Below, in pieces: positions 6,486 to 21,999 of a stretch of DNA of 32,000 nt. Position 1 is the first letter of the stretch. Each line of letters starts with the position of its first letter. The notes below the pieces were generated by a model. It was not told the DNA's origin and did no database searches. It saw only the letters and a list, made by a program, of their open reading frames with translations. The translations under genes were made by a program, and so were the position numbers. This stretch comes from Geotalea daltonii FRC-32 (GTDB lineage: Bacteria > Desulfobacterota > Desulfuromonadia > Geobacterales > Geobacteraceae), in contig NC_011979.1 of assembly GCF_000022265.1 (NCBI RefSeq), forward strand, positions 2,970,001-3,002,000, read 5' to 3'.

Positions 6486-6520
6486 AGGCCTCTTCCCGAG
6501 CGGGAGAGGCCTTTTCTTTA
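6486..6520 (+). terminator. Near-identical second copy of the hairpin (AGGCCTCTTCCCGAGCGGGAGAGGCCT) followed by TTTTCTTTATT; likely intrinsic terminator of the giant cytochrome gene
   Basis: A GC-rich stem followed by a plus-strand T-tract, about 200 nt after the stop codon at 6283. Confidence 0.6.
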
Positions 6521-8755: not shown

Positions 8756-9736
8756 ATGAAAGTTTTTCTGTCACATGCTTCATCCGAAAAAAAGATGGCG
8801 AAGACTTTGCGGAGAAAGTTAGAGGTTGCCGGGCACGAGGTATCAACTTCAGATTCAATGGAGCAAGGAGATGACATTACCTCAGCCATTGGTAAGTTGA
8901 TTGAGCGTGCGGAAGCCTTCGTCATTATTGTTTCCCCTAAAGGTCTCGGTAATGAACGGCTGATGTGGGAGTGGAGAACGGTACTGGAAAATTCGTGGAA
9001 GGAGCAGGGGAGACCAATCTTCGGGGTCCTCGTGGGTAATGTGGTTCCGCCACCGTTCCTAATGGGGAGGCAGCTTGTAACGATTTCCTCCCTGGATGAT
9101 ATCGATACTGCCGCTGAACAACTTCTGGGGCGCCTTCAAGGAAATCCGATTGACGAAATGGTCGTTGAAGATCTTAAGGCGAGAGGCAGGGAGATCATTT
9201 CTCATTTATCGAGCGAGATCCAAAAATTCGAGCCAAGCCCGGAACAACTAGAAAAGCAGCGGAAACGGCTTCAAGAAAAGATTCATGAACTTTCGGCTGC
9301 ACCGGCCAGTGGGGACCTCGCACGGCTGAACCTGAAGCTGGTCAATGTGATCAAGACATTGGCCGAGAAAGGGCTGCAGGTAGATGGTGCAATTCCGTTA
9401 ATGACTAAGTCGCTTGAAATAATGGAACAGCTTCAGAATACTTCCCCGGAGCAACGGGCTGCGCTACGGACGAGGATTGCGCGGGAAATGGAAAAGGCAG
9501 GTGATTTCCAAGGTGCGCTTGAGCAAGCGTGTCGAGCGCTGCAGGTTTGTGTAGAAGAACTTGATAAGAAAGGCCCTGCTGATACGGAGTGTGACGATAA
9601 CGTTCCGGCCCTGGGATCCCTTCTTGAGCGGATCAAGGAGACTGTCGGGGAGGAAAATGTCCGTGCGGGCCGTTCCCTTGTCTCTTCATTAATTAGCAGA
9701 GCAGCAGACGGCAAAAGCAGGGGGGGGCAACAATGA
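8756..9736 (+). CDS. TIR-domain protein with long helical (coiled-coil/TPR-like) C-terminal region
   Basis: The N-terminus reads MKVFLSHASSEKKMAKTLRRKLEVAGHEV...AEAFVIIVSPKGLGNERLMWEWRTVLE. This matches the TIR pattern (beta-A FLSH, then W-E in the alpha-C position). An RBS (CAGGAG) lies upstream. The stop overlaps the next start (ATGA). Confidence 0.75.
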   Translation: MKVFLSHASSEKKMAKTLRRKLEVAGHEVSTSDSMEQGDDITSAIGKLIERAEAFVIIVSPKGLGNERLMWEWRTVLENSWKEQGRPIFGVLVGNVVPPPFLMGRQLVTISSLDDIDTAAEQLLGRLQGNPIDEMVVEDLKARGREIISHLSSEIQKFEPSPEQLEKQRKRLQEKIHELSAAPASGDLARLNLKLVNVIKTLAEKGLQVDGAIPLMTKSLEIMEQLQNTSPEQRAALRTRIAREMEKAGDFQGALEQACRALQVCVEELDKKGPADTECDDNVPALGSLLERIKETVGEENVRAGRSLVSSLISRAADGKSRGGQQ

Positions 9737-10365
9737 GTTACAAATTCCCTCATCCTGAGCTTCCCAATCCCGACAGTGAGAAATCGATTTTTATCAATTG
9801 TCCCTACGACTCCGAATATGAGCCCTTTTTCGATGCCATCATCTTTTCGGTAGTTGCATCTGGCTTCATCCCGCGAAGCGCCAAGGAATCCGAAATGATT
9901 GCTGTCAGTCGAATTGAAAGAATTCTGCATGCTTTATACACGTCCAAGTATTCCATCCACGACTTATCGAAATGTCGGTATGAAGGAAACCAAATGCTGG
10001 CTCGTTTCAACATGCCGTTGGAACTGGGTCTGGCGATGTCTCGGAGATATCCGGGGGATGGGAAGATCCTGCATAACTGGTTGGTTCTCGTTCCCACTGA
10101 CGCCCCTTACAGCAAATTCGTCTCCGATCTGTCCGGTTTCGATCTGAAGCAGTATCCTGGAAATGAAACTGAATTGATGAGAGCTCTGTTGGCCTGGTTG
10201 ATGGTCCTTCCTGGAGCCCTACCCAGGATCTGCCCAACCCCCGTCATAGAGAATTTTTTGGATTTCAAAGTCCAGAAGAAAAAACTCAAGGAGGAGTGGG
10301 GTGATGATGTACCGTGGAAATTGCTTGTCGAAGCTGCAAAGGCAACGATTCCTGACTTTGCGTAA
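9733..10365 (+). CDS. Nucleoside 2-deoxyribosyltransferase-like / TIR-like (flavodoxin-fold) domain protein
   Basis: KSIFINCPYDSEYEPFF...YTSKYSIHDLS...ARFNMPLELGLAMS follows the beta1 / alpha / (D/N)xxxELGxA layout of NDT and COG4271-type TIR-like domains. The assignment is motif-level only. Confidence 0.5.
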   Translation: MSYKFPHPELPNPDSEKSIFINCPYDSEYEPFFDAIIFSVVASGFIPRSAKESEMIAVSRIERILHALYTSKYSIHDLSKCRYEGNQMLARFNMPLELGLAMSRRYPGDGKILHNWLVLVPTDAPYSKFVSDLSGFDLKQYPGNETELMRALLAWLMVLPGALPRICPTPVIENFLDFKVQKKKLKEEWGDDVPWKLLVEAAKATIPDFA

Positions 10366-10390
10366 ACCTTAATCCAGAGGAGGAGCTAAA

Positions 10391-11278
10391 ATGTCACAAC
10401 AAGTGCACGTAACATTTATTCACGGCCTTGCCAACAAACCTGCACCAAAAGAGCTTGAGCGGATATGGCTGAATGCCCTTTCTGCCCCTGTGGTTGGTGA
10501 TCCAGGTTTTGATCTTGGAGCTGTCGGCGTAACTGCTTCCTTTGTATATTGGGCTGACCTTTTCTATGACAAGCCAATAGCCGCATCGGATTATGAAGCT
10601 GCAGCCAACCGCGCGGAGGAGCTTGATGCAGCAGTGAAACAGGATGTTAAACCGGGATGGGAAGCGAGCCTTATGCTGAAGTTGGCTGATGGAAATCAAG
10701 CGCTCAAGGATGCCCCGGTCGACGAAAGTACGGATGGATATGAACGGATACCGATCCCTTGGTTCATCAAAGAGCGTATGATGGAGCATTTCGTTCGGGA
10801 GGCCCACGACTATCTGTTCAACACGAACGGTATTAGAGACATCATCCGTCGTCGTGTTTTGGATGATTTTGCAAAGGTAGCGCCAGGGACACGCCATGTG
10901 TTGGTCGGGCATAGCCAGGGGACCTTCATAGGGTATGACGTCCTAACTGACGTGATGGATTGCAAGGAAATCGAAGGCTTCATGACCCTCGGAAGCCCGC
11001 TGGGGCTTGATGAAGTACAGGACAAACTTAACTGGTCCTGCAAAAACGGCTTTCCGTCAAAGTTGAAGGGGGACTGGGTGAACGTTTATGATCCGTTTGA
11101 TGTGATCTCTCGACCCGATCCGGCGCTGGCCAATGACTTCAAAAAGAATGGTACAGAAGCTGTGATCGATGTTAAGGAAGAGAATTGGGGCACGTGGCGC
11201 CACTCGGCAACGAAATACTTCAAGGGACCTAAGCTTCGCGCGCAGTTACGTCGGCTGTGCAAACGGGAGGGTGCCTGA
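10391..11278 (+). CDS. Alpha/beta-fold serine hydrolase (lipase/esterase-like)
   Basis: An RBS (GGAGGAG) lies upstream. The protein has HVTFIHGLANKP, the nucleophile elbow VGHSQGT, then TLGSPLG, plus candidate Asp (YDPFD) and His (WRHS) in the S-D-H order. Confidence 0.75.
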   Translation: MSQQVHVTFIHGLANKPAPKELERIWLNALSAPVVGDPGFDLGAVGVTASFVYWADLFYDKPIAASDYEAAANRAEELDAAVKQDVKPGWEASLMLKLADGNQALKDAPVDESTDGYERIPIPWFIKERMMEHFVREAHDYLFNTNGIRDIIRRRVLDDFAKVAPGTRHVLVGHSQGTFIGYDVLTDVMDCKEIEGFMTLGSPLGLDEVQDKLNWSCKNGFPSKLKGDWVNVYDPFDVISRPDPALANDFKKNGTEAVIDVKEENWGTWRHSATKYFKGPKLRAQLRRLCKREGA

Positions 11279-12795
11279 TGGAGCCGGCGTGTTTCCTGAA
11301 AGAGCTTAGGACTGCGGTAGATGAATTCAGGCACACTGATGTTGGTACTCTTCTTGATCAGGTGAACCTAGACGACTTCGACGGTGGACAAATTAAAAAG
11401 ACGCTTACGATCCTTCGTCGCAAGCGGTTGTTCCCCGAGTTGGAGGCAACAACCAAGAAGCTCATTGCCTGCGGGAAAGAAACTCCTCTGGTTCGACGCC
11501 TGCAGGTTCAAGCTCTTATTGACCAGAACATGATCGAGGAGTCTTTAGGTATATTGCAGGCTCTCCCGACGGAGCACCGTAACGATCCTCGTGAGGGACC
11601 TGAGCTCTGCGGTTTATCTGGTCGGGCATTCAAGCAGCTTTATGTGAATGGCGCGGGACGGGACAATTTGGGGAAAGCGATCCGTGAGTATAAGTCCTGT
11701 TGGACTAATCGTATGGGTGACTATCGCTGGCATGGTATCAATCTTGTTGCCCTCTTGGCACGAGCAGAACTGGATGGGATTGACATACCGGGGGGACCGA
11801 ATAGAGAATTGATTGCCAGAGAAATTCTCGGAGAAATCGACGATCTTGGGCAGAATGCTACCATCTGGGACCATGCTACTGCCATGGAAGCCTCCGTCGC
11901 GTTACTGGACACTGATGGGGCTCTCAGATGGGCAAAGGATTACGTTCGACACCCATGTGTCGACGCCTTTGAATTGGGAAGCACACTCCGGCAGATGAAG
12001 GAGGTTTGGAGGCTTTCAGGTACGGAACTCGGCAATAAACTCCTCCCTGTACTCGAATATGAATTTCTTCAGAGACAGGGCGCAGAGTTACAGGTAACAT
12101 CTCTGGCTGTAGCGGACATCGGCGGGTTTCAGGCGGTCTATGGAAATGAAGCTGCCGTACCGATAGCATGGCTGGACAACATGTTTGAGAGATGCAAGGC
12201 GGTGGGACGGGTCATTCGAACCGGAACCGGTGAGGCGATCGGGAGCGGCTTTCTTGTAAGAGGATCTGAACTGTGTCTGGGTTGGGGAGATGCGCCGGTC
12301 TTTGTTACAAATGCGCATGTGGTCAGCGACCGATCAGAAGACAATGCGCCGCTTCGATCGGGGGATGGATCGGTTGAATTTACCCGTATCTATGGGCGAC
12401 CGAGGGTAGAACTCGGAAATATCCTCCATACCTCTGCCAAAGACGAGCTAGACGTAACAGTGTTGCAGGTTAATCCTCCTTTGGGCACCTCAGTACTCAG
12501 CCCATCGTTTTATCCGCCGGTGGTTCCTGGCGAGGGACAGGCACCGCAGCGTATATACGTTATTGGACATCCTGGAGGACGGGAACTTGAAGTTACCCTC
12601 TACGACAATAGCCTAGTAGCCTGTTCTGACAACCGTTTCGTGCACTACCGCAGCCCGACAGAAGGAGGGCACTCAGGATCTCCTGTTTTTACGAGGGAAT
12701 GGAAAGCTATCGCTGTTCATCATCGGAATAGACAGGAGTTACAGGTAAACGAAGGCGTGTTATTTGGGCCAATCTGTGATGTTCTGAAGATTTAG
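11278..12795 (+). CDS. Helical TPR-like (DUF4071/TRAF-binding-domain-like) N-terminal domain fused to a trypsin-like (S1) serine protease
   Basis: The start ATG shares one nt with the preceding TGA. The C-terminal triad reads in order FVTNAHVV (His), DELDVTVLQ (Asp) and TEGGHSGSPVF (Ser). The N-terminal motifs GLSGRAFKQLY...DYRWHGINLVALLA resemble DUF4071, an assignment made from memory. Confidence 0.8.
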   Translation: MEPACFLKELRTAVDEFRHTDVGTLLDQVNLDDFDGGQIKKTLTILRRKRLFPELEATTKKLIACGKETPLVRRLQVQALIDQNMIEESLGILQALPTEHRNDPREGPELCGLSGRAFKQLYVNGAGRDNLGKAIREYKSCWTNRMGDYRWHGINLVALLARAELDGIDIPGGPNRELIAREILGEIDDLGQNATIWDHATAMEASVALLDTDGALRWAKDYVRHPCVDAFELGSTLRQMKEVWRLSGTELGNKLLPVLEYEFLQRQGAELQVTSLAVADIGGFQAVYGNEAAVPIAWLDNMFERCKAVGRVIRTGTGEAIGSGFLVRGSELCLGWGDAPVFVTNAHVVSDRSEDNAPLRSGDGSVEFTRIYGRPRVELGNILHTSAKDELDVTVLQVNPPLGTSVLSPSFYPPVVPGEGQAPQRIYVIGHPGGRELEVTLYDNSLVACSDNRFVHYRSPTEGGHSGSPVFTREWKAIAVHHRNRQELQVNEGVLFGPICDVLKI

Positions 12796-12862
12796 TTTTC
12801 TGATATTGCACCGTCTAACAATCCCAGAATAGGATTTGCATTGTTACAAGGAGATGTCATTT

Positions 12863-13384
12863 ATGGGACTGCCAAGAACGTTCGTAGGATTCAGCAGCAC
12901 TGATATCAATTATTACCGGCTGATGCAAGCGTGGAAGGCACATGAGCATATCGATTTTGATTTCGCCGATTGCCAACTTAATTCAGAAATCAATTCAGAG
13001 GATGAGACTTACATAAAGCGAAAATGCCGGGAGCGCATCAATCTGGCGGGCAAATACGCGATGCTCATTGGCGAGGATACGCGCTATAAGTATAAATATG
13101 TCAAGTGGGAGGCTGAAGTTGCAATCGAAAAGGGCTGCACGATTATCGGGGTGAACCTTGATGGGTGGAGGCGAATCAATGAAGAAACCTGTCCTCCTAT
13201 TCTAAGAAACAGAGGGGTAATGTTTGTTCCCTTTTCGCCGAAGATTGTTGCACATGCTCTTGACCATGCGCAGCTTCATGATGATAAGAATTGGGAATTC
13301 AAGGACAATGTCTATACACAGTTAGGATATGTACTCGACGGAAACCGCGCTGAGCTGCCACCCAGGCCATTTCCATTTCGGTAA
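12863..13384 (+). CDS. ThsB-like TIR domain protein (DUF1863-type)
   Basis: The start is chosen 9 nt after AAGGAG. Motifs: TFVGFSSTDINYYRLM...YKYVKWEAEVAIEKGCTIIGVNL. The ORF opens at 12836. Confidence 0.7.
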   Translation: MGLPRTFVGFSSTDINYYRLMQAWKAHEHIDFDFADCQLNSEINSEDETYIKRKCRERINLAGKYAMLIGEDTRYKYKYVKWEAEVAIEKGCTIIGVNLDGWRRINEETCPPILRNRGVMFVPFSPKIVAHALDHAQLHDDKNWEFKDNVYTQLGYVLDGNRAELPPRPFPFR

Positions 13385-13463
13385 TCTGTCATTCCGACTT
13401 GTTAAACGAGAGTGAATGGTGGAACTGTAAAGTTTACTTGATAATAAATTACGGGAGCGGCTA

Positions 13464-14075
13464 ATGGCCTTATTTCGTGAGTCAACAGTAAGAGATTATG
13501 CCCAAAGAGCTTTGTCTGCTGACAGAATCCGGCGAAATGCATATTCTCTGAGGAAATCAGAAGCCCTGATTTTGGAGTCCATAACTGCGGCTGTGTATGC
13601 GGATCATTTTGACATGTTCCTGTCGCATACTATTCGAGATGCTGAGATAATTTTGGGGATGAAGGAGCTATTTGCGGAAATGGGTTACAAAGTTTACATC
13701 GACTGGATAGATGATCCGCAATTAGACAGGAGAAGTGTCAATAGAAATACTGCTGATAAAATCAGATCGAGAATGCAGCAATGCAACTCCCTGTTTTTCG
13801 TAACAACGCAGAGTTCACTTGATTCGAAATGGATGCCGTGGGAATGCGGATACTTTGACGGTATCAAAAGCAAGGTTGCAATTGTTCCAGTTGTTCAATA
13901 CTCAAGCGATGAAAAATATCGCGGTCAAGAGTATCTCGGGCTGTATCCTTACTGTGAGAAATCACCAAGTAAGGGCGGTAAAGAGTTATTGTACGTGTTT
14001 GAAGATGCTAAGAAGTACCTTCCATATGATGAATGGGTTAAGCAGTCAGAGCCAATAAAATGGTATGAAATTTAA
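13464..14075 (+). CDS. TIR domain protein with about 45-aa N-terminal extension
   Basis: FDMFLSHTIRDAE (beta-A/BB region) and SLDSKWMPWECGYFDG (alpha-C W..E motif). A GGGAG RBS lies upstream. Confidence 0.7.
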   Translation: MALFRESTVRDYAQRALSADRIRRNAYSLRKSEALILESITAAVYADHFDMFLSHTIRDAEIILGMKELFAEMGYKVYIDWIDDPQLDRRSVNRNTADKIRSRMQQCNSLFFVTTQSSLDSKWMPWECGYFDGIKSKVAIVPVVQYSSDEKYRGQEYLGLYPYCEKSPSKGGKELLYVFEDAKKYLPYDEWVKQSEPIKWYEI

Positions 14076-14167: not shown

Positions 14168-15331
14168 ATGCGCATAGCTGGCGGTTTCTACAGAGAAAAT
14201 TGTTGCTTGCCTGCCTGGAATGCAGCATTTGGTTCCGGTGGTCGGGCTGCTGCAGCTATATCTAGGCTTTCTCCGGGGACTGTTCTTCATACATATTGTG
14301 AAGAGTCGGAAGACGTGCATATTCATGCGCTTAAGAAGCTTGGCGTGGATGTTCGCGTGAATTCGCGACCTACAAGTATTGTCTTCGCGTATTTTCATCC
14401 GCTGTCTCGACCCCACATTCAACCACCACCAGACATGCTCACCCTGCAACATATAATTACTATCAGCGATGAAGCCGTGTTGCGTTTTGGGTTTTTGGAG
14501 GGTGATGCAATAGTTGATGCAGATCGAGCCGTTTATGACCCCCAGACGTGGCGGAATCCGGCACCATTCAGGGCAAATGGCTCCCGTGCGAACGAGTTGG
14601 CTATTGTTCTTAACGAGCTGGAACTCAAATCCGCGACCGGCTATCAAGCTGAGCTCTCTCTGGCGGCACATCAATTAATTGAAGATCAGCAGGCAGAGCT
14701 TGTTGTTGTGAAGCGCGGAATCTGGGGTGCAACGGTTTACGAGCGGTCGGGGATAGTCACATTAATTCCCGCATATAGATCATCGCGAGTGTTTAAGATC
14801 GGTACAGGTGACGTGTTTAGCGCAATTTTCGCCCACTACTGGGCAGAGAAAAGACTGTCTGCCGCGGAGGCTGCCGATTTAGCGTCTCGGGCTGTTGCAC
14901 AATACTGCAACAGCGGCCAGTTACCAATTGATCCTGCCGAATTGGGTCAGTTTGCACCCATTCACTGCGGAACGGCAGGGACGGTTCTACTTTTGGGGGT
15001 GGCTGGTAGTCTTGGCCAGCGATACACAATGGAAGAAGCCCGTTTTGTCTTGAAAGGACTCGGCGTGGAGGTTTGCTGTCCTGTTCTGGATGGTGAATTG
15101 AGCTATTCAGCCTGTGCCGCGCTCATTCTTGCAGAGGGTGCAGATGCGGAGATTATCAGGAGCATTGAAAGCGAACCATTGCCAGGTTTACCCATGGTTG
15201 TATTGCAGGAAAAAGGTGTGCGATGTGATGAACTATTGAAAGTCCCTGCTTTAGAGAAAGCTTCAATTGTCGATGATTTTACAACGGCGATGTATACGGT
15301 GACATGGGCCGCATTAGAAACTGATAGCTGA
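14168..15331 (+). CDS. PfkB/ribokinase-family sugar or nucleoside kinase with an extra C-terminal domain of about 100 aa
   Basis: GSGGRAAAAISRL (PfkB N-terminal Gly motif) and FKIGTGDVFSAIFAHYW (the GxGD catalytic-base motif). The ATG at 14168 follows GAGAGGAAA. The ORF opens at a TTG at 14114. Residues after about 290 (TVLLLGVAGSLGQ...) have no counterpart in minimal ribokinases. Confidence 0.7.
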   Translation: MRIAGGFYRENCCLPAWNAAFGSGGRAAAAISRLSPGTVLHTYCEESEDVHIHALKKLGVDVRVNSRPTSIVFAYFHPLSRPHIQPPPDMLTLQHIITISDEAVLRFGFLEGDAIVDADRAVYDPQTWRNPAPFRANGSRANELAIVLNELELKSATGYQAELSLAAHQLIEDQQAELVVVKRGIWGATVYERSGIVTLIPAYRSSRVFKIGTGDVFSAIFAHYWAEKRLSAAEAADLASRAVAQYCNSGQLPIDPAELGQFAPIHCGTAGTVLLLGVAGSLGQRYTMEEARFVLKGLGVEVCCPVLDGELSYSACAALILAEGADAEIIRSIESEPLPGLPMVVLQEKGVRCDELLKVPALEKASIVDDFTTAMYTVTWAALETDS

Positions 15332-15344
15332 GGAAATCACACAG

Positions 15345-16748
15345 ATGGCAGACATATATATTGTGTATGCTAAAGAGAACAAAAAAATAGCAATAATGCT
15401 ATTTGAACTGTTGTCTCAGCAATGGGATGTCTGGATAGACAAAAAAATAGTCGGTTCCTTTCGTCAGGCAATAGAAAAGGAATTACCAGGCTCTGGATGT
15501 GTTGTCGCAGTAAACTCCATGGCAGCACGCGTGAAGGCTACCTATGCTGCAGAGTTGCAGATTGCAGAAAACTACAAAGTTCCCATGATACCTGTAAGAC
15601 TTGATGATTCTGATCTTCCTTACCCATTCGGCGAAAACAGTCATGTTGACATGCAAGACTGGACAGGCGAGGCTGATCACAGCGGAATTATGGAATTAAA
15701 GTGTAAATTGGCATCTGTTGTACCGCCTAGGGTACCTCCTCAACGTCCCAATGCGATAGCTGGCGGAAAAATTCCTTTACCCAATTTATTCATGTCAGTT
15801 TCTTCATTTGAAACACAAATATCACCTGCCGGAGCAGTCAGCGTACTACGGACATTTGAATCAAAAACTATTTTAGTTTCAGCCTATGATTTGGTGCCAA
15901 GATATAAGAAAGACCCTCAAGGCATTATAGATGAGTTGAAAGAGTATCAAGATAATGGCGGTTTTATATTGCTGGACTCTGGAAGCTATGAACAGACACG
16001 TTTTTCAAAAGGAAATTGGCAAAAACAAAAATTATGGAATGTGCTTCACAAAGTGCCGCATGATTGGGCTTTCTGCTTTGACATATTGAAACCGAAACAC
16101 AAGCCAGAAATGGCAATTAGCGAAATAATCGAGGCTGTAGAAAGAGAAAAAGAGTATACCAAGAGCGCTGTACTGCCCATTGTCCATGCTCCAAAATTAA
16201 AATATGGCGGTTACAAGCTAACACATTTCCCTAAGATAATCTGTGAAATTTCAGAAAAACTTCAACCGCCGTTGATAGCAGTACCTGAACGAGAATTAGG
16301 GGAGGGAATCGTTGCCAGGGCAATGGCCATACAGAGCATTAGAAAAGAACTCGATAAATTGCCATTCTACCAACCCCTCCATATTCTAGGAACAGGCAAT
16401 CCATGGAGCATACCTGTTTTTGTTGCTGCAGGCGCTGACTCATTTGATGGCCTTGAGTGGTGCAGAATGGTGGTAGATCGTGATGTGCATCGACTTCACC
16501 ATTTTCAGCATTTTGATTATTTCGTTTGCCAAAAGGGGAAAGCTGAATCACAGATTGTAAAGACAGCTCTTGATGGTAATGATTTTCAAGCAAAAGTTGT
16601 TTTCCATAACCTTGATTATTACTCTTCATTCATGGTTGAAATGAGACAATATTTAGCTGAAAATGATCTTCAGTCATTTATGGTTGGAATAATGGGGAGC
16701 CAGGCAGTAAAGCAATTAAAACAAGAAATTAAAGGGTTGTTTAGATGA
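15345..16748 (+). CDS. Fusion protein: N-terminal TIR domain + C-terminal tRNA-guanine-transglycosylase-fold (TGT/DpdA/Cap10-like) domain
   Basis: TIR part: DIYIVYAKENKKIAIMLFELL...ATYAAELQIAENYKVPMIPV. TGT part: GFILLDSGSYEQ (compare TGT LTDSGG[FY]Q) and LHILGTGNPWSIPVFVAAGADSFDGLEW (compare YLMGVGxP...GxDMFDC). I could not find the CxCxxC...H zinc motif. The gene lies 13 nt after the PfkB stop. Confidence 0.75.
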   Translation: MADIYIVYAKENKKIAIMLFELLSQQWDVWIDKKIVGSFRQAIEKELPGSGCVVAVNSMAARVKATYAAELQIAENYKVPMIPVRLDDSDLPYPFGENSHVDMQDWTGEADHSGIMELKCKLASVVPPRVPPQRPNAIAGGKIPLPNLFMSVSSFETQISPAGAVSVLRTFESKTILVSAYDLVPRYKKDPQGIIDELKEYQDNGGFILLDSGSYEQTRFSKGNWQKQKLWNVLHKVPHDWAFCFDILKPKHKPEMAISEIIEAVEREKEYTKSAVLPIVHAPKLKYGGYKLTHFPKIICEISEKLQPPLIAVPERELGEGIVARAMAIQSIRKELDKLPFYQPLHILGTGNPWSIPVFVAAGADSFDGLEWCRMVVDRDVHRLHHFQHFDYFVCQKGKAESQIVKTALDGNDFQAKVVFHNLDYYSSFMVEMRQYLAENDLQSFMVGIMGSQAVKQLKQEIKGLFR

Positions 16749-17449
16749 ATACTTCTAGCAATAGATTGAAAAATGCCGTTGCTGCTATCTGTCCTGACAT
16801 CCGTGATCGCGTAAGTAAAGCTGTAATTCCTACAGATGAGAAACGCCTCTGGTGGGAGTTATCTTCATGCATCCTGAGCAGCCAAGTCCCATATCCCCTT
16901 TCTACTGCTGCTGCGAATGCAATCAACAATGATGGCATTTTACATGACAAGTGCGTAAGTGCTACGAAACGAGCCAAGCGTTTGGAGGAGCTTTTGATCA
17001 CTCCCGTAGAGGTTGATGGCAAACAACGAGCATATCGCTTTCCTGTTGCACGAGCGCGTCAGTTGGCTGCTGCACATAGTGTGGTGATGGATAGTAAATG
17101 CACACTTCGTGAGCTCGTTAAGAGTTTCGCAACTGCCACTGAAGCCAGATGTTGGTTTGTGAAGCATGTGCCGGGTATCGGTCCGAAGCAGGCAAGCATG
17201 TTCCTGAGAAATGCCGGGGTTAGTTATGATCTGGCAATTCTGGATCGGCATGTGCTGAATTATATGACGAAGCTCGGAATGTATTCCGGTGATAACTATT
17301 CGATCTCCAGCCTTGCACAATATCGCCGCCATGAGGTTGAGCTGAAAAAACATGCTGAAGAGTTGGATTGTCAGGTCGGATTTCTTGATTGGGCTATTTG
17401 GATTGTGATGCGTGTTGCCAATCGTGTCCCGGAGGTTGCCACTGTATGA
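16745..17449 (+). CDS. HhH-GPD DNA glycosylase, Ogg2 (archaeal-type 8-oxoguanine glycosylase)-like
   Basis: VPGIGPKQASMFLRNAGVSYDLAILDRHVLNYM carries the helix-hairpin-helix GIGxK plus the downstream Asp typical of Ogg2 enzymes. ATGA overlaps occur at both ends. Confidence 0.75.
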   Translation: MNTSSNRLKNAVAAICPDIRDRVSKAVIPTDEKRLWWELSSCILSSQVPYPLSTAAANAINNDGILHDKCVSATKRAKRLEELLITPVEVDGKQRAYRFPVARARQLAAAHSVVMDSKCTLRELVKSFATATEARCWFVKHVPGIGPKQASMFLRNAGVSYDLAILDRHVLNYMTKLGMYSGDNYSISSLAQYRRHEVELKKHAEELDCQVGFLDWAIWIVMRVANRVPEVATV

Positions 17450-18036
17450 GCATCGTGACCTTGGTTTCCGGTGGACTTGATTCTACGTTGATTGCCAAAC
17501 TCGCCCAAGAAGAGGGCCTTATCCAGCATCCGCTATTTGTCGATTATGGTCAGAGGGCTCGCGATCAGGAACTGGCTGCCTGCCGCCGTGGCATGAGCGA
17601 ACTTGGTTTGCCGGAACCAAGGGTGGCTGATCTATCCGGTTTTGGGGCGCTTATACACTCAGGCCTTACTGATTCGTCACTTGATATAGTCAAGGATGCC
17701 TTTACGCCGGGTCGTAATATGCTGTTTCTCCTCATTGCAGCAGCGTATGCGGTTCAGGTAAAAGCAGACGCAATTTCAATAGGGCTTCTTCACGAAAGTA
17801 CCAGCCTATTTCCTGATCAAACCAGTGCATTTCTACGTGATGCCGAAGTACTCATCAGACGTTGCATGAACAGGGATATCAAGCTGCTCGCTCCGCTTGC
17901 CTCATTCCTCAAAACAGATGTAGTTGCCCTTGCGAAGTTGAAAAGGATTGGCGCTACCTATTCTTGCCACACAGGGAATGAGGAAACATGCGGTACATGC
18001 ATAGCTTGTCGGGAATTTGAGACGGTGGAGGTTTAA
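17446..18036 (+). CDS. QueC-like PP-loop ATPase (7-cyano-7-deazaguanine synthase family; Cap9-like)
   Basis: MSIVTLVSGGLDSTLIAK carries the SGGxDS PP-loop, and the C-terminal Cys cluster is CHTGNEETCGTCIACREF (C-x7-C-x2-C-x2-C). The start overlaps the OGG stop (ATGA). Confidence 0.8.
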   Translation: MSIVTLVSGGLDSTLIAKLAQEEGLIQHPLFVDYGQRARDQELAACRRGMSELGLPEPRVADLSGFGALIHSGLTDSSLDIVKDAFTPGRNMLFLLIAAAYAVQVKADAISIGLLHESTSLFPDQTSAFLRDAEVLIRRCMNRDIKLLAPLASFLKTDVVALAKLKRIGATYSCHTGNEETCGTCIACREFETVEV

Positions 18037-18037
18037 G

Positions 18038-18502
18038 ATGGGTGGCAACGGTGGTGGCGGTTGGAGCAGCCTTGGCGATTTACGGGCACTGGAGGAAAAG
18101 GCTAAAGCTGCACTTCAGGGCGGAAAGCGAAATGTGTTTATCAGCTTTGCCACAGAAGACATGGACGAGGTCAACCTCCTGCGTGCTCAGGCTAAGAATG
18201 AGAATAGTGATATTGAGTTTAACGATCATTCTGTGCAGGAACCGTACGAAAGCGACCGGGCCGAATATATACGGCGCAAAATCACAGAGAGAATTAACCG
18301 AACTTCGACAACAGTTGTTTACCTCTCGCAAAATACAGCACAGAGTAAATGGGTTAGGTGGGAAGTCGAGAAAAGTTTGGAGTTGGACAAAAGAGTTATT
18401 GCAGTGCATGCAGGGGATAAATTTACCGGAGACAAACCCTCGTGGTTTTCTGAAGGCATTAAAGTAGTATCTTGGTCCAAGCTTGCTGGTGAGTTGACGT
18501 AA
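18038..18502 (+). CDS. ThsB-like TIR domain protein with Gly-rich N-terminal tail
   Basis: The ATG follows GGAGG and lies 1 nt after the QueC stop. The protein starts MGGNGGGGWSSLG, then NVFISFATEDMDEVNLL ... SKWVRWEVEKSLEL. Confidence 0.75.
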   Translation: MGGNGGGGWSSLGDLRALEEKAKAALQGGKRNVFISFATEDMDEVNLLRAQAKNENSDIEFNDHSVQEPYESDRAEYIRRKITERINRTSTTVVYLSQNTAQSKWVRWEVEKSLELDKRVIAVHAGDKFTGDKPSWFSEGIKVVSWSKLAGELT

Positions 18503-19089
18503 TGGTTATAGCGAAGTGTCGTGTCACGCCTGCTATTGCTGCTCTTGCTGGTCGCCGGATTGATGTCTCGGATGCAACTATTCCTCGATTTCCACTACTT
18601 GAGGTTCAACATGTGTATAACAAGCTCCTTTATCGCTTCCGCCGAGAGAATATTCAACATCTTGTCTGCTCTGCAGCATGTGGCGCAGACATCCTTGCAC
18701 TAGAAGCAGCGAGGGAATTGGCAATTCCAGCGACAGTTGTCCTTCCCTTCTCGCCTGATATCTTTCGAGAAGTTTCCGTTACCGATCGACCAGGGGCATG
18801 GGGCAAGCGGTTTGATCATCTTGTGCAGGAAGCCAGTGATCGAGGCCGCCTTATAGACCTTCAACTTGAGGTCAGTGACGAGAACGCATTCACTGTAACC
18901 AATCACCGGATAATTGAATCTGTACTAGACCTTAGGTTTACTCGAAAGTTGGCATTTGTTGTATGGGACGGGCGGTCGCGTGGAGAAGGTGATTCTACGG
19001 CTGAATTTCTCAAAATAGCTTTGTCGCACGGACTGGAGAAAAGATGTGTTATGACAACAGGAAAGAGCTGCAGTGAAATAGTAGAATGA
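18502..19089 (+). CDS. Stand-alone SLOG-superfamily (LOG/YpsA/DprA-like Rossmannoid) domain protein
   Basis: LVCSAACGADILALEAARELAIPATVVLPF resembles the GxGxD...G-IP motif of YpsA/SLOG. FVVWDGRSRGEGDSTAEF resembles the LOG PGGxGTxxE motif. There is a TAATG overlap with the preceding TIR gene. Confidence 0.5.
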   Translation: MVIAKCRVTPAIAALAGRRIDVSDATIPRFPLLEVQHVYNKLLYRFRRENIQHLVCSAACGADILALEAARELAIPATVVLPFSPDIFREVSVTDRPGAWGKRFDHLVQEASDRGRLIDLQLEVSDENAFTVTNHRIIESVLDLRFTRKLAFVVWDGRSRGEGDSTAEFLKIALSHGLEKRCVMTTGKSCSEIVE

Positions 19090-19206: not shown

Positions 19207-20058
19207 ATGACAGAACTATTCTCCCCACCCCATGACAGGGTAACCCTGCGCAACAGCTTACGCGAAGCCATCGGCAAGACGAGGCGCGATGCCGCGATTT
19301 TCGCCGTTCTTACGGTGATCCTGACACCGATCTTCTTAGCCGGCGCAACCGTTGTCCTCATATTTGCCCTGGCCTTTGTCGATCTGCCGCTGGTCGATAA
19401 TCTCGGCTATGAACGATCTATTGTGACAGGGGTCAACCTTGCACTGGCCTTCATGGCGGCTTCATATTTTCTTAAGCCCAAGGAACCTTATCAGCGGCAC
19501 AAAAGCGATGAAGCGTGGCTGATGATTGCACTGGCCTTGTACTGTGCTCTGTTCCTCTTGTCCTACGGCACGAGCCTGTCCCATTCGCATCCCATCGGCT
19601 TCTGGTCATTGTACCTGGGGATAGCTCTGACCATGCTTGGGTGTATCGGCCATGCATACGAACCACAGGAAGACTATTACCTGGGATGGCTTTCTGGGCC
19701 GGTCCTCGTTGATAATCCATTTACTATTCAGGACGATATTGATCGAGCCCATGTGTCTCTGGGCTTCGCGGTAGCTCTGGCCAATCTGGTTTTGACATCC
19801 TACGATGAAATTTTCGGCAGCAAATGGCTTTGGCAGGGGCTAAAGGAGTCAGAAATATCGGCTTCTGTAGAATTTCTGGAAGCACTGGCAATCAACGATG
19901 GCAGCCGTGCCCGGTCTGTAGTGGCAAAAGTCGGCAAAACTTCCTCCCTCGGGATGATCCGCGCCCTGGTGAAGCTGGAGATGATCAGGATCAATAAAGG
20001 CGTGGTGCGGCTCAGCTTGAAGGGAAGGGAATTTGTCGGTGTTAAGGCCTTTGGGTAG
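19207..20058 (+). CDS. Multi-pass membrane protein of unknown function with soluble C-terminal domain of about 90 aa
   Basis: At least four hydrophobic segments (AIFAVLTVILTPIFLAGATVVLIFALAF; IVTGVNLALAFMAASYF; WLMIALALYCALFLLSY; FWSLYLGIALTMLGCIG). The C-terminus LGMIRALVKLEMIRINKGVVRLSLKGREF looks like a winged helix. Confidence 0.6.
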   Translation: MTELFSPPHDRVTLRNSLREAIGKTRRDAAIFAVLTVILTPIFLAGATVVLIFALAFVDLPLVDNLGYERSIVTGVNLALAFMAASYFLKPKEPYQRHKSDEAWLMIALALYCALFLLSYGTSLSHSHPIGFWSLYLGIALTMLGCIGHAYEPQEDYYLGWLSGPVLVDNPFTIQDDIDRAHVSLGFAVALANLVLTSYDEIFGSKWLWQGLKESEISASVEFLEALAINDGSRARSVVAKVGKTSSLGMIRALVKLEMIRINKGVVRLSLKGREFVGVKAFG

Positions 20059-20187
20059 CCTTTGAACGTGAATACTGGCGATTCTGGTGGACCGATGAAC
20101 AGGGAAAGTCCCTCAGGCGTCCCTGGATCAACTCAATGTGGCACCATTTGGGGATACACAACATGATAAAGAAGGGGTAGACCGGCC

Positions 20188-20790
20188 ATGTTCAAGCGCT
20201 TCATTGCCATCAGCGTAATAATCACCCTCATAAGCGGCTGTTCTTCAGCCTATTATGTTCATTTCGACTCCACTCCAGTCGGTGCCACCGTGCAGTTTGC
20301 TGGCTCCACCTGTACAACTCCCTGCAAACTGCCACTGGCAAATACAGATGTGCAACTGGCTCAGGTTTCTTTTGCTGGCCGGGAGCCGAAGTTAGTTCGC
20401 GTCGAGGGGGCGCCGAGCGTGTCTGCGAGGGTAGGGCATGGAGTCTCTTCTGCCACCGCGACCACCTTGGGATACCTGGCTATACCGCTACTGGCGGTCG
20501 GCGGCTTCGGGCTTATTCTCTTTTCGGGTAATGAGACAGATGGCTTTTACAATAGTGATTATCAATACGACCGTGGTGGTTTCTACATCACCATGGGCGC
20601 CCTGGTGTCTGGCGCCACGCTCATGTGGGCATCCAAGAGCATGAAGGATTTCTCTGCCGATTTATATGAGCGGCAGGATGTCTACGTGGCTCTGGATCTG
20701 CCGGAAGCGAAGCGAGAAGATAAGCACAAACCCACACTTTCCGTTGATGATTTTATCGGTCACCGACCATTTCCTGTCACCGGTCGCTGA
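20188..20790 (+). CDS. Lipoprotein with PEGA-like domain and C-terminal hydrophobic segments
   Basis: Signal peptide with lipobox LISGC, a PEGA-like stretch FDSTPVGATVQF, then the TM-like segment LGYLAIPLLAVGGFGLILF. Confidence 0.6.
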   Translation: MFKRFIAISVIITLISGCSSAYYVHFDSTPVGATVQFAGSTCTTPCKLPLANTDVQLAQVSFAGREPKLVRVEGAPSVSARVGHGVSSATATTLGYLAIPLLAVGGFGLILFSGNETDGFYNSDYQYDRGGFYITMGALVSGATLMWASKSMKDFSADLYERQDVYVALDLPEAKREDKHKPTLSVDDFIGHRPFPVTGR

Positions 20791-21324: not shown

Positions 21325-21630
21325 CTAAGCTGCATTTCTGAGAGGTTTCACTTCTTGCTCGATTCGCTCAGCCAAAGTGATTTCAGCACATTCGAGATCG
21401 TATTGGGCTTGAAGATTCATCCAGCTTTGGGCGTCTGTGCCGAAGAACCGGGCAAGGCGCAAGGCGGTGTCGGCAGTGATGGCCCGTTTGCCGGCGCAGA
21501 TTTCATCGATACGGCGTTGGGGTACGCCGATGGACTTGGCAAGCCTATAGCGGGTAACGTTTAGCGGCTTTAGAAAGTCTTCAAGGAGAATTTCTCCAGG
21601 ATGTACCGGGGGAAGATCGCGTTTTATCAT
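21325..21630 (-). CDS. higA: HigA-family antitoxin (XRE-type HTH)
   Basis: MIKRDLPPVHPGEILLEDFLKPLNVTRYRLAKSIGVPQRRIDEICAGKRAITADTALRLARFFGTDAQSWMNLQAQYDL is a canonical HigA sequence. The ATG (CAT at 21628-21630) is preceded by AGGAG. The longer ORF to 21810 was rejected. Confidence 0.9.
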   Translation of the reverse strand: MIKRDLPPVHPGEILLEDFLKPLNVTRYRLAKSIGVPQRRIDEICAGKRAITADTALRLARFFGTDAQSWMNLQAQYDLECAEITLAERIEQEVKPLRNAA

Positions 21631-21640
21631 AGAAGCTCCT

Positions 21641-21922
21641 TTAGTGGTAATCGACGATTTCGACGTCCGTTGCATTTCCGTCTTGCCAGGTAAAACAGAT
21701 GCGCCATTGGTCGTTGATTCGGATGCTCCACTGGCCGGTGCGGCTCCCTGAAAGTTGCTCAAGCCTGTTGCCTGGTGGTACGCGGAGAAAATCCAGGGTA
21801 GTGGCGCCATGAATCTGTTTTAGCTTCCGTTGGGCGATACGCTGCACATCCTGTGGCAGCTTTCCGGAAAAGCGGCCGTGAAAAAGCTTTTCAGTCTCTT
21901 TACAGGCAAACGTCTTGATCAT
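21641..21922 (-). CDS. higB: HigB-family (RelE-fold) mRNA interferase toxin
   Basis: MIKTFACKETEKLFHG...LPQDVQRIAQRKLKQIHGATTLDFLRVPPGNRLEQLSGSRTGQWSIRINDQWRICFTW matches the plasmid-maintenance killer family. The toxin-first order with a 10-nt gap to higA is typical. Confidence 0.9.
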   Translation of the reverse strand: MIKTFACKETEKLFHGRFSGKLPQDVQRIAQRKLKQIHGATTLDFLRVPPGNRLEQLSGSRTGQWSIRINDQWRICFTWQDGNATDVEIVDYH

Positions 21923-21999
21923 GGGAAAATAGTACTGGGAGACGTTAGTATTGTCAAGCGGTAGTATGTTAAAGAAAAACACCAAAGAGTAGCAACTTC

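Follow-up and report, generated by a model that had tools for sequence, protein, structure and literature searches.

What could be the function of a single protein in which a TIR domain is joined to a barrel of the tRNA-guanine transglycosylase (TGT) fold? The question is raised by gene Geob_2715, here called H, which lies within a window of 32,000 nucleotides of Geotalea daltonii FRC-32 (contig NC_011979.1, 2,970,001 to 3,002,000); the window is the whole stretch of DNA that was analysed, and all positions given below are counted along it. H occupies 15345..16748 of the + strand and, as a sequence-only reading of the window had proposed, it forms one open reading frame of 467 aa starting with ATG, which is preceded by the Shine-Dalgarno sequence GAGGA about 10 nt upstream. 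The encoded protein matches exactly ACM21065.1 / WP_012647793.1 in the complete genome record. Its two-part nature, TIR plus TGT fold, is confirmed by Pfam TIR_2, Pfam TGT, the TGT model of PADLOC and the combination of AF2 modelling with Foldseek; the strings that had drawn attention to it are also all present, namely ATYAAELQ (with E70), LLDSGS (with D211/S212) and SFDG (with D368). The gene had moreover appeared by eye to be the most AT-rich of its island, and it does have the lowest GC among the 14 island genes (GC 0.404, GC3 0.34).

The fusion is real and widely conserved. Its full-length form is found in at least 66 species genomes and more than 115 protein clusters, and also on conjugative plasmids, on which RefSeq annotates H as a single CDS; 117 of the 120 best homologue clusters are full length (451-514 aa). 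Relatives of H are encoded in 188 of 185,579 species genomes, and among the best 80 matches the fused form accounts for 66. The implied novelty of the protein was therefore overstated, because TIR-TGT fusions are common in databases and Thoeris operons with cap9, cap10 and cap11 figure in Yirmiya et al. (2025). The operon type was thus already known in 2025, and what appears to be new is the fusion itself: as far as the portions of the latter preprint available to us go, its text mentions neither a covalent TIR-Cap10 fusion nor a kinase gene, even if its figure may show the fusion. A literature search on TIR with QueC, TGT and OGG, extended to combinations with SMODS and TPR-S, returned nothing relevant.

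The C-terminal domain of H (aa 147-467, 15783..16748, + strand) is a (beta/alpha)8 barrel of Cap10 type. It is recognised by Pfam TGT (E 6.5e-9, 35.7 bits against a cut-off of 26.3) and by the PADLOC 'TGT' model PDLC00913 (aa 165-462, E 2.7e-26), with scores for the TGT equivalogs of NCBIfam lying far under their cut-offs (39.7 vs 350 and 16.6 vs 306.75). In the AF2 model of H (pLDDT 90.5, pTM 0.90) the top 50 Foldseek matches in the PDB are all Cap10 or TGT chains, so that the C-terminal part has the TGT fold and is no generic TIM barrel, the outcome against which the sequence-only reading had set its own proposal. The best of these matches, ranking above all TGTs, is Cap10 9ntn_A/B (E 4.5e-13, TMt 0.68), and 9ntn_A is also the best PDB match by sequence (E 4e-8 when searched as a single sequence and 1.7e-12 as a profile). 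The Cap10 protein of type IV CBASS has no zinc site; it reads the nucleobase with D73/S74, D122 and K154 and carries the catalytic pair H226/D248, with N9 of 7-amido-7-deazaguanine (NDG) poised at D248 (Wassarman et al. 2025). Cap10 residues D73/S74, D122, H226 and D248 align, respectively, to D211/S212 (codons 15975-15980, +), D246 (16080-16082, +), H346 (16380-16382, +) and D368 (16446-16448, +) of H, the last two within matching segments (PIHVFG...GADVFDG in Cap10, PLHILG...GADSFDG in H), and none of these residues varies in any of the 79 relatives. K154 of Cap10 falls, in the profile alignment, within an insert before P155/P278, where the H family has an invariant LPIVHA containing H281. 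The pattern C.C..C occurs nowhere in the H protein; the CxCxxC zinc motif is absent from all 79 relatives, and none of them has a cluster of Cys in the region aligned to CSCPVC of ArcTGT. The retention of the Asp residues together with the loss of the zinc site, first noticed in H, holds for the whole set of 79 relatives.

At the opposite end of the protein lies a TIR_2 domain (aa 1-125, 15345..15719, +), delimited by Pfam (aa 4-108, E 5.6e-11, 43.4 bits with a curated cut-off of 28) and by AF2 secondary structure. The Glu in catalytic position, E70 (codon 15552-15554, +), lies within the helix of aa 65-76 and is retained in 65 of 66 fused orthologues. When this TIR domain was used by itself, a word-index search gave no homologues, and its relatives were gathered by an exhaustive HMMER search: the nearest all have TIR_2 as an N-terminal module and share the Glu, which is present in at least 90% of the 118 closest TIR_2 relatives. 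The TIR of H thus belongs to a generic class of N-terminal TIR_2 domains joined to many sensor-like C-terminal domains, the Cap10 barrel being the partner in just 14 of those 118; the weak profile matches that it has in the PDB are SPARTA TIR-APAZ chains. Its fold and conserved alphaC Glu, shared with N-terminal TIR_2-X proteins, ThsB, SPARTA TIR-APAZ and TIR-SAVED, fit a catalytic TIR, for which NAD+ cleavage is predicted. As in TIR_2-X proteins and TIR effectors, the TIR is N-terminal and the C-terminal domain plausibly controls it, whereas the nature of the partner, a Cap10 barrel, sets H apart; its TIR_2 is also dissimilar to the ThsB_TIR (DUF1863) class of the ThsB encoded in its own cassette (K, below). 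Between the two domains runs a Pro-rich linker (aa 126-146, 15720..15782, +) that is predicted with high confidence (pLDDT 93-95 in the AF2 model, with a pTM of 0.90 for the whole), and these two values, taken by themselves, suggest a fixed arrangement of TIR and Cap10.

H is the second gene of a compact cassette on the + strand. It is preceded by G (14168..15331), a kinase of the ribokinase superfamily, PfkB-like by Pfam, with an extra C-terminal alpha/beta domain, and is followed by I (16745..17449), a Cap11-like N-glycosylase/DNA lyase of OGG type (Pfam Ogg-HhH E 6.4e-26, NCBIfam, PDB 3fhg), J (17446..18036), a Cap9-like enzyme of the QueC family with 196 aa (Pfam QueC 3e-37, PADLOC QueC), and K (Geob_2718, 18038..18502), a ThsB-type TIR of 154 aa (Pfam ThsB_TIR 6e-25, TIR and ThsB matches in the PDB) whose start is the same in the NCBI annotation. 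All usable loci among 80 are colinear, with the order G-H-I-J-K or H-I-J-K; gene junctions overlap or nearly so, the start of I overlapping the stop of H by 4 nt, and the five genes are annotated alike, independently, on a conjugative plasmid in RefSeq. J has an SGGLDS PP-loop and a C-terminal Cys cluster, and it matches in the PDB both QueC 2pg3 and Cap9 9nto_B, being nearer to canonical QueC (3.5e-17) than to the Rhizobiales Cap9 (7e-11). J and K are neighbours in every locus, and a homologue of the Cap11-like I is found in nearly all of them. For G, profile comparison with the PDB gives ribokinases, the KIGTGD motif is conserved and the AF2 model (pLDDT 92.3) has a ribokinase fold that Foldseek matches to kinases of the same family. 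This gene precedes H in about 56 of 66 fused loci, leaving some 10 without it, and in none of the 12 Thoeris-type loci in which Cap10 is unfused. The latter loci do not provide a simple split version of H: the small TIR that often lies beside their cap10 belongs, as K and E do, to the ThsB/DUF1863 class, unlike the TIR_2 of H, and pairs with an adjacent SLATT gene, for which reason we rejected a joined split gene pair as the origin of the fusion.

K carries a link with CBASS. Its N-terminus reads MGGNGGGG, with the catalytic-position Glu (E109) in WVRWE, and in essentially all 79 loci the corresponding start is MGG[GSN]xGG, which matches M(G/S)G(G/S)GG, the motif of type IV CBASS cyclases. In those systems the motif is modified by Cap9 and bound by Cap10 (Wassarman et al. 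2025), and the N-terminus of K is predicted to be a site of N-terminal deazaguanylation. Given that this separate ThsB bears MGGxGG, K rather than the fused TIR is likely to be the deazaguanine-tagged generator of the signal. This setting of H within a strictly conserved cassette with Cap11, Cap9 and ThsB, decisive for its interpretation, had escaped the sequence-only reading.

The remaining genes of the island, again all on the + strand, point to Thoeris. The first, A (8756..9736), encodes a TIR_2 (Pfam 8e-17) with a helical, TPR-like C-terminus. C (10391..11278; weak Pfam Abhydrolase_6), which is alpha/beta-hydrolase-like, is paired with D (11257..12795), a candidate effector that combines a TPR-S sensor with a trypsin-like peptidase (Pfam Trypsin_2 5e-19, TPR-S 3.5e-9), and the two recur beside the cassette in five related loci. 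They are followed by two ThsB-type TIRs: E (12836..13384; PADLOC ThsB1 2.9e-41), which is small, has no Gly tail and has like genes in 26 of 53 fused loci, and F (13464..14075; PADLOC ThsB1 9.8e-65). Downstream of K, and overlapping its stop by 1 nt, starts L (18502..19089), a SLOG protein of DUF1273/YpsA type according to its UniRef name and a candidate signal binder, homologues of which directly follow K in four related loci. By gene content the island would therefore be assigned to Thoeris, with E, F and K as ThsB-type TIRs and the TPR-S protease and SLOG protein as candidate effectors, and would not be assigned to type IV CBASS, having no CD-NTase (no island gene matched nucleotidyltransferase or SMODS) and a ThsB TIR as its Gly-tailed partner. 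In related loci, effectors of the cADPR-dependent Thoeris types VII and VIII usually flank the cassette: a ThsI-like, SLATT or TPR-S effector lies within 4.5 kb in 49 of the 53 fused loci with long flanks and in that interval is missing from the other 4. These effectors match type VII (SLATT) and type VIII (CMP-hydrolase-TPR) of the 2025 preprint, whose operons likewise contain a TIR and an effector with Cap9, Cap10 and Cap11 (Yirmiya et al. 2025). K and E resemble tested cADPR-producing ThsBs of types VII and VIII, K being 27-31% identical to them. Scans of the island for promoters and terminators gave results at chance level, and no tRNA marks it.

How do these pieces work together? We consider it reasonably likely, on the basis of homology and gene context, that H is the Cap10 part of a Thoeris-type counterpart of the deazaguanylation module of type IV CBASS, equipped with a competent N-terminal TIR_2. 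The operon, presumably anti-phage, probably tags its partner TIR protein with a 7-deazaguanine base, and H would most likely function as a Cap10 which docks and controls the deazaguanylated ThsB and which has an additional catalytic TIR in the same chain. First, as homology and motif would have it, J would employ ATP together with 7-carboxy-7-deazaguanine from the host in amidating Gly2 of K, which would thereby acquire an N-terminal NDG tag. Next, the NDG tail would dock in the Cap10 pocket of H, the residues of which are conserved as described, with D211/S212/D246 reading NDG and the catalytic pair H346/D368 beside its N9; K would then be tethered to a dimer of H in an off state. Cap10 of CBASS indeed binds the NDG-modified N-terminus of its partner in a 2:2 complex (Wassarman et al. 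2025), and for the Thoeris operons the preprint reports AF3 predictions, given without experiments, in which ThsB pairs with Cap10 (ipTM 0.79) and Cap9 (ipTM 0.62) (Yirmiya et al. 2025). Upon infection, the Cap10 pair might transfer or release the NDG-linked ThsB, and TIR domains would then assemble and convert NAD+ into a signal of cADPR type. To judge from the neighbourhood, this signal would switch on TPR-S, SLOG and SLATT effectors, which in the window might be D, with its TPR-S sensor and protease, and the SLOG protein L, and in most relatives ThsI and/or ThsH. Finally, the Cap11 homologue I would undo the transfer. It is plausible that the fusion couples the generation of the signal with the handling of deazaguanine, as the sequence-only reading had imagined. 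As the role of the built-in TIR we tentatively prefer that of a second catalytic protomer beside the tethered ThsB, in an H2K2 assembly that would have four TIRs and could form a composite TIR-TIR site, a weak proposal whose likelihood we put somewhat below even. Neither in CBASS nor in the 12 unfused loci does Cap10 need a TIR, and consequently the TIR of H is an add-on, the role of which could be quite different.

In evolutionary terms, the TIR of H is the fastest-evolving part of the cassette, with a mean pairwise identity of 0.38 vs 0.69 for K, and it has been exchanged independently of K. Along the alignment with one related locus, DNA identity falls from 0.84-0.86 to about 0.5 in the linker of H, with a breakpoint around 15750; by this measure, recombination has replaced only the Cap10 domain in G. 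daltonii. The rapid evolution of the TIR and the domain-wise recombination of TIR and Cap10 suggest that H lies at the interface between host and phage. A tightly co-adapted TIR-TIR heterodimer of H and K fits poorly with such fast evolution and independent exchange.

The alternative that survives best, unlikely as we hold it to be, is that the fused TIR is an NAD+-depleting effector comparable to those of TIR-SAVED, TIR-APAZ/SPARTA and Pycsar TIR, with Cap10 and NDG-ThsB as the switch: activation would collapse NAD+ and abort the infection without any diffusible signal. It draws on the generic TIR_2 class of the domain with its many sensor-like partners, the weak matches to SPARTA TIR-APAZ chains, the conservation of E70 and the 4 of 53 loci that have no ThsI-like, SLATT or TPR-S effector within 4.5 kb. 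Yet dedicated Thoeris effectors adjoin the cassette in the other 49, every cassette has a ThsB of the signal-producing type, and the unfused Cap10 cassettes need another output. The proximity of effectors, together with the likeness of K and E to ThsBs that produce cADPR, would favour signalling over self-contained killing.

Base exchange and transfer are among the reactions of TIR domains, as in the production of His-ADPR in type II Thoeris. This background lends some appeal to the possibility that H is a two-site enzyme, in which NAD+ is cleaved by the TIR and base exchange links the ADP-ribosyl moiety to N9 of the NDG held in the Cap10 pocket. The product would be a protein-linked 7-deazaguanine ADP-ribonucleoside or, once released, a new nucleotide signal containing deazaguanine; the ribokinase-like G would phosphorylate and the OGG-like I would remove the conjugate. 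If true, this would name the acceptor of the NDG transfer mediated by Cap10. The rigid packing of TIR on Cap10, as judged from pTM and linker pLDDT, would suit such a reaction, as would the kinase that is specific to the fused form (about 56 of 66 loci against 0 of 12 unfused), the N-glycosylase present in nearly every locus and the position of N9 at D248 of Cap10 (Wassarman et al. 2025). However, Cap10 still carries a nucleophile pair of its own and needs no TIR in CBASS or in the unfused loci, about 10 fused loci dispense with G, and the scheme is purely inferential; we rate it as improbable.

We give a similarly low chance to a regulatory function of the fused TIR, which might hydrolyse the cADPR signal and so set a threshold, cap ThsB in a non-productive manner or offer a surface for phage sensing or decoy. 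Its fast evolution and its recombination independent of K form a pattern typical of host-virus interfaces, and TIR-fold cADPR hydrolases are known (PMC13455253), but the near-invariant catalytic Glu speaks against a purely structural role.

A very remote alternative is that H works on nucleic acids as a transglycosylase akin to TGT, ArcTGT or DpdA, inserting 7-deazaguanine into tRNA or DNA, the TIR being an unrelated add-on. H shares with bacterial TGT, eukaryotic QTRT1, ArcTGT and DpdA the fold and the positions of the nucleophile and substrate Asp (DSGSF and GVDLFD of ArcTGT align to DSGSY and GADSFD of H), and it adjoins a QueC homologue. Unlike these enzymes, it has neither the CxCxxC...H zinc site nor a tRNA/DNA context nor DpdB/C, and is closer to Cap10 than to any TGT; queD and queE are also not among its neighbours, and the universal presence of a MGGxGG ThsB partner suggests that its substrate is a protein. 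The sequence-only reading had deduced a remodelled, non-tRNA substrate as in DpdA or Cap10-like proteins, and of these two models only the second stands, given the best matches in sequence and structure. The DpdA or DNA-modification version was discarded upon finding that PADLOC detects only the 'TGT' and TIR models, with no Dpd match for H or its neighbours, and that dpdB and dpdC are not nearby. That H could be an artefactual fusion of two genes, through an error of sequencing or assembly, has virtually no probability: we found nothing in its favour, and the identical protein in the complete genome record, the 117 full-length clusters of the top 120, the 66 independent genomes from several phyla with the fused form and the concurring RefSeq annotations on plasmids all oppose it.

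Returning to H as the Cap10 of a Thoeris-type deazaguanylation module, its closest counterpart is the Cap10 of type IV CBASS from Rhizobiales (9ntn), with which it has in common the TGT fold, the base-reading Asp-Ser and Asp, the His/Asp pair, the missing zinc, the neighbouring QueC-like Cap9 and OGG-like Cap11 and a partner that starts with M-G-G-x-G-G. The two differ in the N-terminal TIR_2 of H and in the partner, which is a ThsB TIR instead of a CD-NTase, and their identity is about 18-19% over the structural alignment. H is also usually preceded by the ribokinase-like gene, which does not appear in descriptions of type IV CBASS; the CBASS model does not accommodate G. By eye, the acidic alpha1 clamp surface of the CBASS Cap10 is not evident in H, and consequently the docking of K may differ. 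A functional analogy extends to type II CBASS, in which Cap2/Cap3 conjugate the cyclase in a ubiquitin-like manner, and to Thoeris with Cap2/Cap3, where ancillary enzymes covalently prime or tether the signal enzyme by a terminal tail, although the chemistry there is C-terminal adenylation and thioester formation by unrelated enzymes, whereas the system proposed for H would employ an N-terminal nucleobase amide.

Protein deazaguanylation, in which a nucleobase becomes attached to the N-terminus of a protein, is a recent discovery, made in 2025 (Wassarman et al. 2025), and its central question is how Cap10 acts on the tagged enzyme and what the acceptor of the transfer is. In the H family, the deazaguanylation module would have moved wholesale from cyclase-based CBASS to TIR-based Thoeris. 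Most of the versions associated with TIR add two parts to those of CBASS, the TIR on Cap10, which is predicted to cleave NAD+, and the enzyme of ribokinase fold. Both of these would act on ribose chemistry, and together they allow concrete, testable proposals on what the missing acceptor or activating step may be. Since the cassette is common and resides also on conjugative plasmids, and since homologues of G are annotated in genomes of Salmonella, Raoultella and Pseudomonas-related bacteria, there should be model systems amenable to experiment.

The gene at 15345-16748 of the forward strand (H; Geob_2715, WP_012647793.1), which databases label no further than 'TIR domain-containing protein', encodes a Cap10 with a fused TIR, part of the deazaguanylation module in its Thoeris version. 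It opens with an ATG about 10 nt downstream of a GAGGA ribosome-binding site and specifies a protein of 467 aa, in which residues 4-108 match Pfam TIR_2 (E 5.6e-11, 43.4 bits; cut-off 28). The protein also matches Pfam TGT (E 6.5e-9, 35.7 bits; cut-off 26.3), and the PADLOC 'TGT' model covers residues 165-462 (E 2.7e-26). The anatomy proposed by the sequence-only reading, a TIR domain joined to a TGT fold, is thus borne out by both Pfam scores, as well as by fold matches to TGT and Cap10; the strings quoted in its support, ATYAAELQ (E70), LLDSGS (D211/S212) and SFDG (D368), are all present.

The nearest solved structure to the C-terminal domain is Cap10 of type IV CBASS, 9ntn_A, found with the H sequence alone (E 4e-8) and with a 41-sequence profile (E 1.7e-12), ArcTGT ranking next. 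The AF2 model of H (pLDDT 90.5, pTM 0.90) likewise retrieves Cap10 first (E 4.5e-13, TMt 0.68), and the 48 fold matches that follow are all TGT or QTRT1. Hence, the domain has a TGT fold and is not the generic TIM barrel considered as an alternative; the likeness to Cap10 suggested earlier holds by sequence and fold, and that to DpdA was wrong. Counted along the alignments, Cap10 residues D73/S74, D122, H226 and D248, which read the 7-amido-7-deazaguanine (NDG) base and form the catalytic pair (Wassarman et al.), correspond to D211/S212, D246, H346 and D368 of H, all identical across 79 of 79 relatives, both fused and unfused; alignment does not place a counterpart of Cap10 K154 in H. As had been noticed, the zinc motif is missing: H contains no C.C..C pattern anywhere, and every relative lacks the Cys cluster in the segment aligned to the ArcTGT motif (CSCPVC). 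The zinc site is equally missing in Cap10 (Wassarman et al.).

The N-terminal domain is a TIR_2 domain, with E70 lying in a modelled helix (aa 65-76) and retained in 65 of the 66 orthologues that are fused. In an exhaustive HMMER search, H aa 1-135 brought up 2711 representatives, and the 118 nearest, scanned for domains, are all N-terminal TIR_2 modules in which the Glu at the catalytic position is at least 90% conserved. Their C-terminal partners vary (TPR, FGE-sulfatase, WD40, trypsin), TGT being the partner in just 14. The domain does not fall in the ThsB/DUF1863 class. In the AF2 model, the pLDDT of 93-95 over the linker (aa 126-146), together with the whole-chain pTM of 0.90, suggests that the TIR and Cap10 domains pack against each other and are not loosely tethered.

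The fusion is real and widespread, and its novelty had been overstated, since it is frequent in databases and belongs to a known kind of Thoeris module. Searching 5.8 billion protein clusters gave 687 matches; in 117 of the best 120 the homologue is full length (451-514 aa; 45-97% identity), with TIR_2 in nearly all of them and the TGT domain in most as well. A scan with one genome per species found relatives in 188 genomes, and of the 80 best loci, 66 hold the fusion and 12 a Cap10-like protein without TIR. Hosts of the fused form include Alpha-, Beta- and Gammaproteobacteria, Desulfuromonadales, Nitrospira, Clostridiales, KSB1, one Paceibacterota MAG and one Micrarchaeota MAG. In RefSeq the fusion is annotated as one CDS on conjugative rhizobial plasmids. 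The Agrobacterium plasmid NZ_CP045855.1 (L081) and other PLSDB matches carry the cassette on conjugative plasmids with adjoining IS630 and IS5 transposases, which indicates horizontal mobility, and divergent ThsI-like and SLATT genes lie alongside.

Across the 80 loci the gene order (G)-H-I-J-K is strictly conserved, with genes that overlap or nearly abut; I is an OGG-like glycosylase and J a QueC homologue, and the ancillary trio of type IV CBASS, Cap9, Cap10 and Cap11, consists of QueC, TGT and OGG. The telling member is K (18038-18502, forward), directly after QueC: a ThsB-type TIR with its Glu within WVRWE, sharing 27-31% identity with type VII and VIII Thoeris ThsBs, which have been demonstrated to make canonical cADPR. 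Its true start is an internal ATG giving the N-terminus MGGNGGGG, MGGNGGGGWSSLGD, and essentially all orthologues at related loci begin with MGG[GSN]xGG. In type IV CBASS, Cap9 installs NDG on cyclases starting M(G/S)G(G/S)GG, and Cap10 binds this motif (Wassarman et al.). Judged from its sequence, the Gly-rich start of K is the same deazaguanylation motif, borne here by a ThsB-type TIR instead of a cyclase. Upstream, G (14168-15331, forward) is a ribokinase-superfamily gene with a conserved KIGTGD (GxGD catalytic motif), a model matching ribokinase, pseudouridine kinase and myo-inositol kinase, and an additional C-terminal alpha/beta domain of about 120 aa. This gene stands ahead of TIR-Cap10 at about 56 of the 66 fused loci and at none of the unfused ones, and the published type IV CBASS model has no such kinase. 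At five unfused loci (L070, L071, L074, L078, L080), SLATT and 132-aa ThsB-type TIR genes directly adjoin cap10 in the order SLATT-TIR-Cap10-Cap11-Cap9-ThsB(MGG...), a type VII-like pair joined straight to the deazaguanylation cassette. The text of Yirmiya et al., who reported Thoeris operons with cap9, cap10 and cap11, mentions neither a TIR-fused Cap10 nor the kinase gene.

In relatives the cassette is flanked by 420-450-aa TPR-S/'TRAFs-binding' proteins (ThsI-like, type VIII), SLATT (ThsH, type VII), small ThsB genes, and hydrolase-TPR-S or protease-TPR-S proteins. Such an effector lies within 4.5 kb in 49 of 53 fused loci with flanks of at least 3 kb, which argues that the cassette works as an accessory ThsB module, regulated and feeding into Thoeris effectors, and not as a stand-alone toxin.

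In G. daltonii FRC-32, H sits in a same-strand island (8756 to about 20790) bounded by NfeD/SPFH genes and a HigBA pair (HigB-like toxin and HTH_3 antitoxin, 21325-21985, reverse). TIR domains, five in all, occur in A, E, F, H and K. The 5' half of the island (8756-14075, forward) has the look of a Thoeris super-island with several ThsB genes and a protease as effector: A combines TIR_2 with a helical/TPR-like tail, E and F are ThsB-type, C is alpha/beta-hydrolase-like and D joins TPR-S to a trypsin-like protease. The N-terminus of B (210 aa) resembles, by eye, the N-terminal domain of ThsI-like effectors. L (18502-19089, forward), whose ATG shares 1 nt with the K stop codon, is a DUF1273/YpsA-type SLOG protein without Pfam matches and a possible signal-binding component; homologues directly follow ThsB in L005, L025, L036 and L037, with a hydrolase-TPR-S gene next. 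Beyond it (19207-20790, forward), a multi-pass membrane protein of 283 aa and a predicted lipoprotein or membrane protein of 200 aa, neither with a significant family match, may be membrane effectors or unrelated. The giant ORF running into the left edge (2-6283, forward; >2093 aa), with seven cadherin-like domains, multihaem cytochrome c7/c3 and Geobacter CxxxxCH motifs, and a strong terminator-like hairpin after it (6486-6512), is a host gene unrelated to TIR-Cap10.

No part of the cassette evolves faster than the H TIR, and the kinase comes second: mean pairwise identities among L001-L058 and the window are 0.38 for the H TIR, 0.44 for G, 0.49 for the Cap10 domain and 0.50 for I, with K (0.69) and J (0.70) as the conserved end. 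Compared with a Geobacter MAG (L001), DNA identity is 0.84-0.86 in the TIR part, about 0.5 in the Cap10 part and 0.81-0.86 over I-J-K (protein: TIR 0.79, Cap10 0.47, I 0.78, J 0.91, K 0.84), with breakpoints between TIR and Cap10 (about 15750) and between H and I, where H ends; against L027, H diverges over its full length. The Cap10 domain alone has therefore been replaced in G. daltonii, a domain-level mosaic. H is indeed the most AT-rich island gene, as had been judged by eye (G+C 0.404, GC3 0.34, lowest of 14), because of this swap, the Cap10-coding part (15676-16770) having the lowest GC (0.39).

By homology to type IV CBASS, deazaguanylation is the best-supported model for the cassette; what the data show is residue conservation and gene linkage, and we infer each chemical step. 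J would conjugate host 7-carboxy-7-deazaguanine (CDG) onto Gly2 of K, and the tagged tail would dock into the Cap10 pocket of H. On infection, the H346/D368 pair would transfer or release it, TIR activity would then produce a cADPR-type signal for TPR-S, SLOG and SLATT effectors, and I would reverse the transfer. As for the fused TIR, we tentatively favour a second catalytic protomer set beside the tethered ThsB; it could instead act as an NADase effector, donate ADP-ribosyl to N9 of NDG, or serve as a regulator or as a surface for sensing. The added TIR and kinase may indicate the acceptor or the activation step of Cap10.
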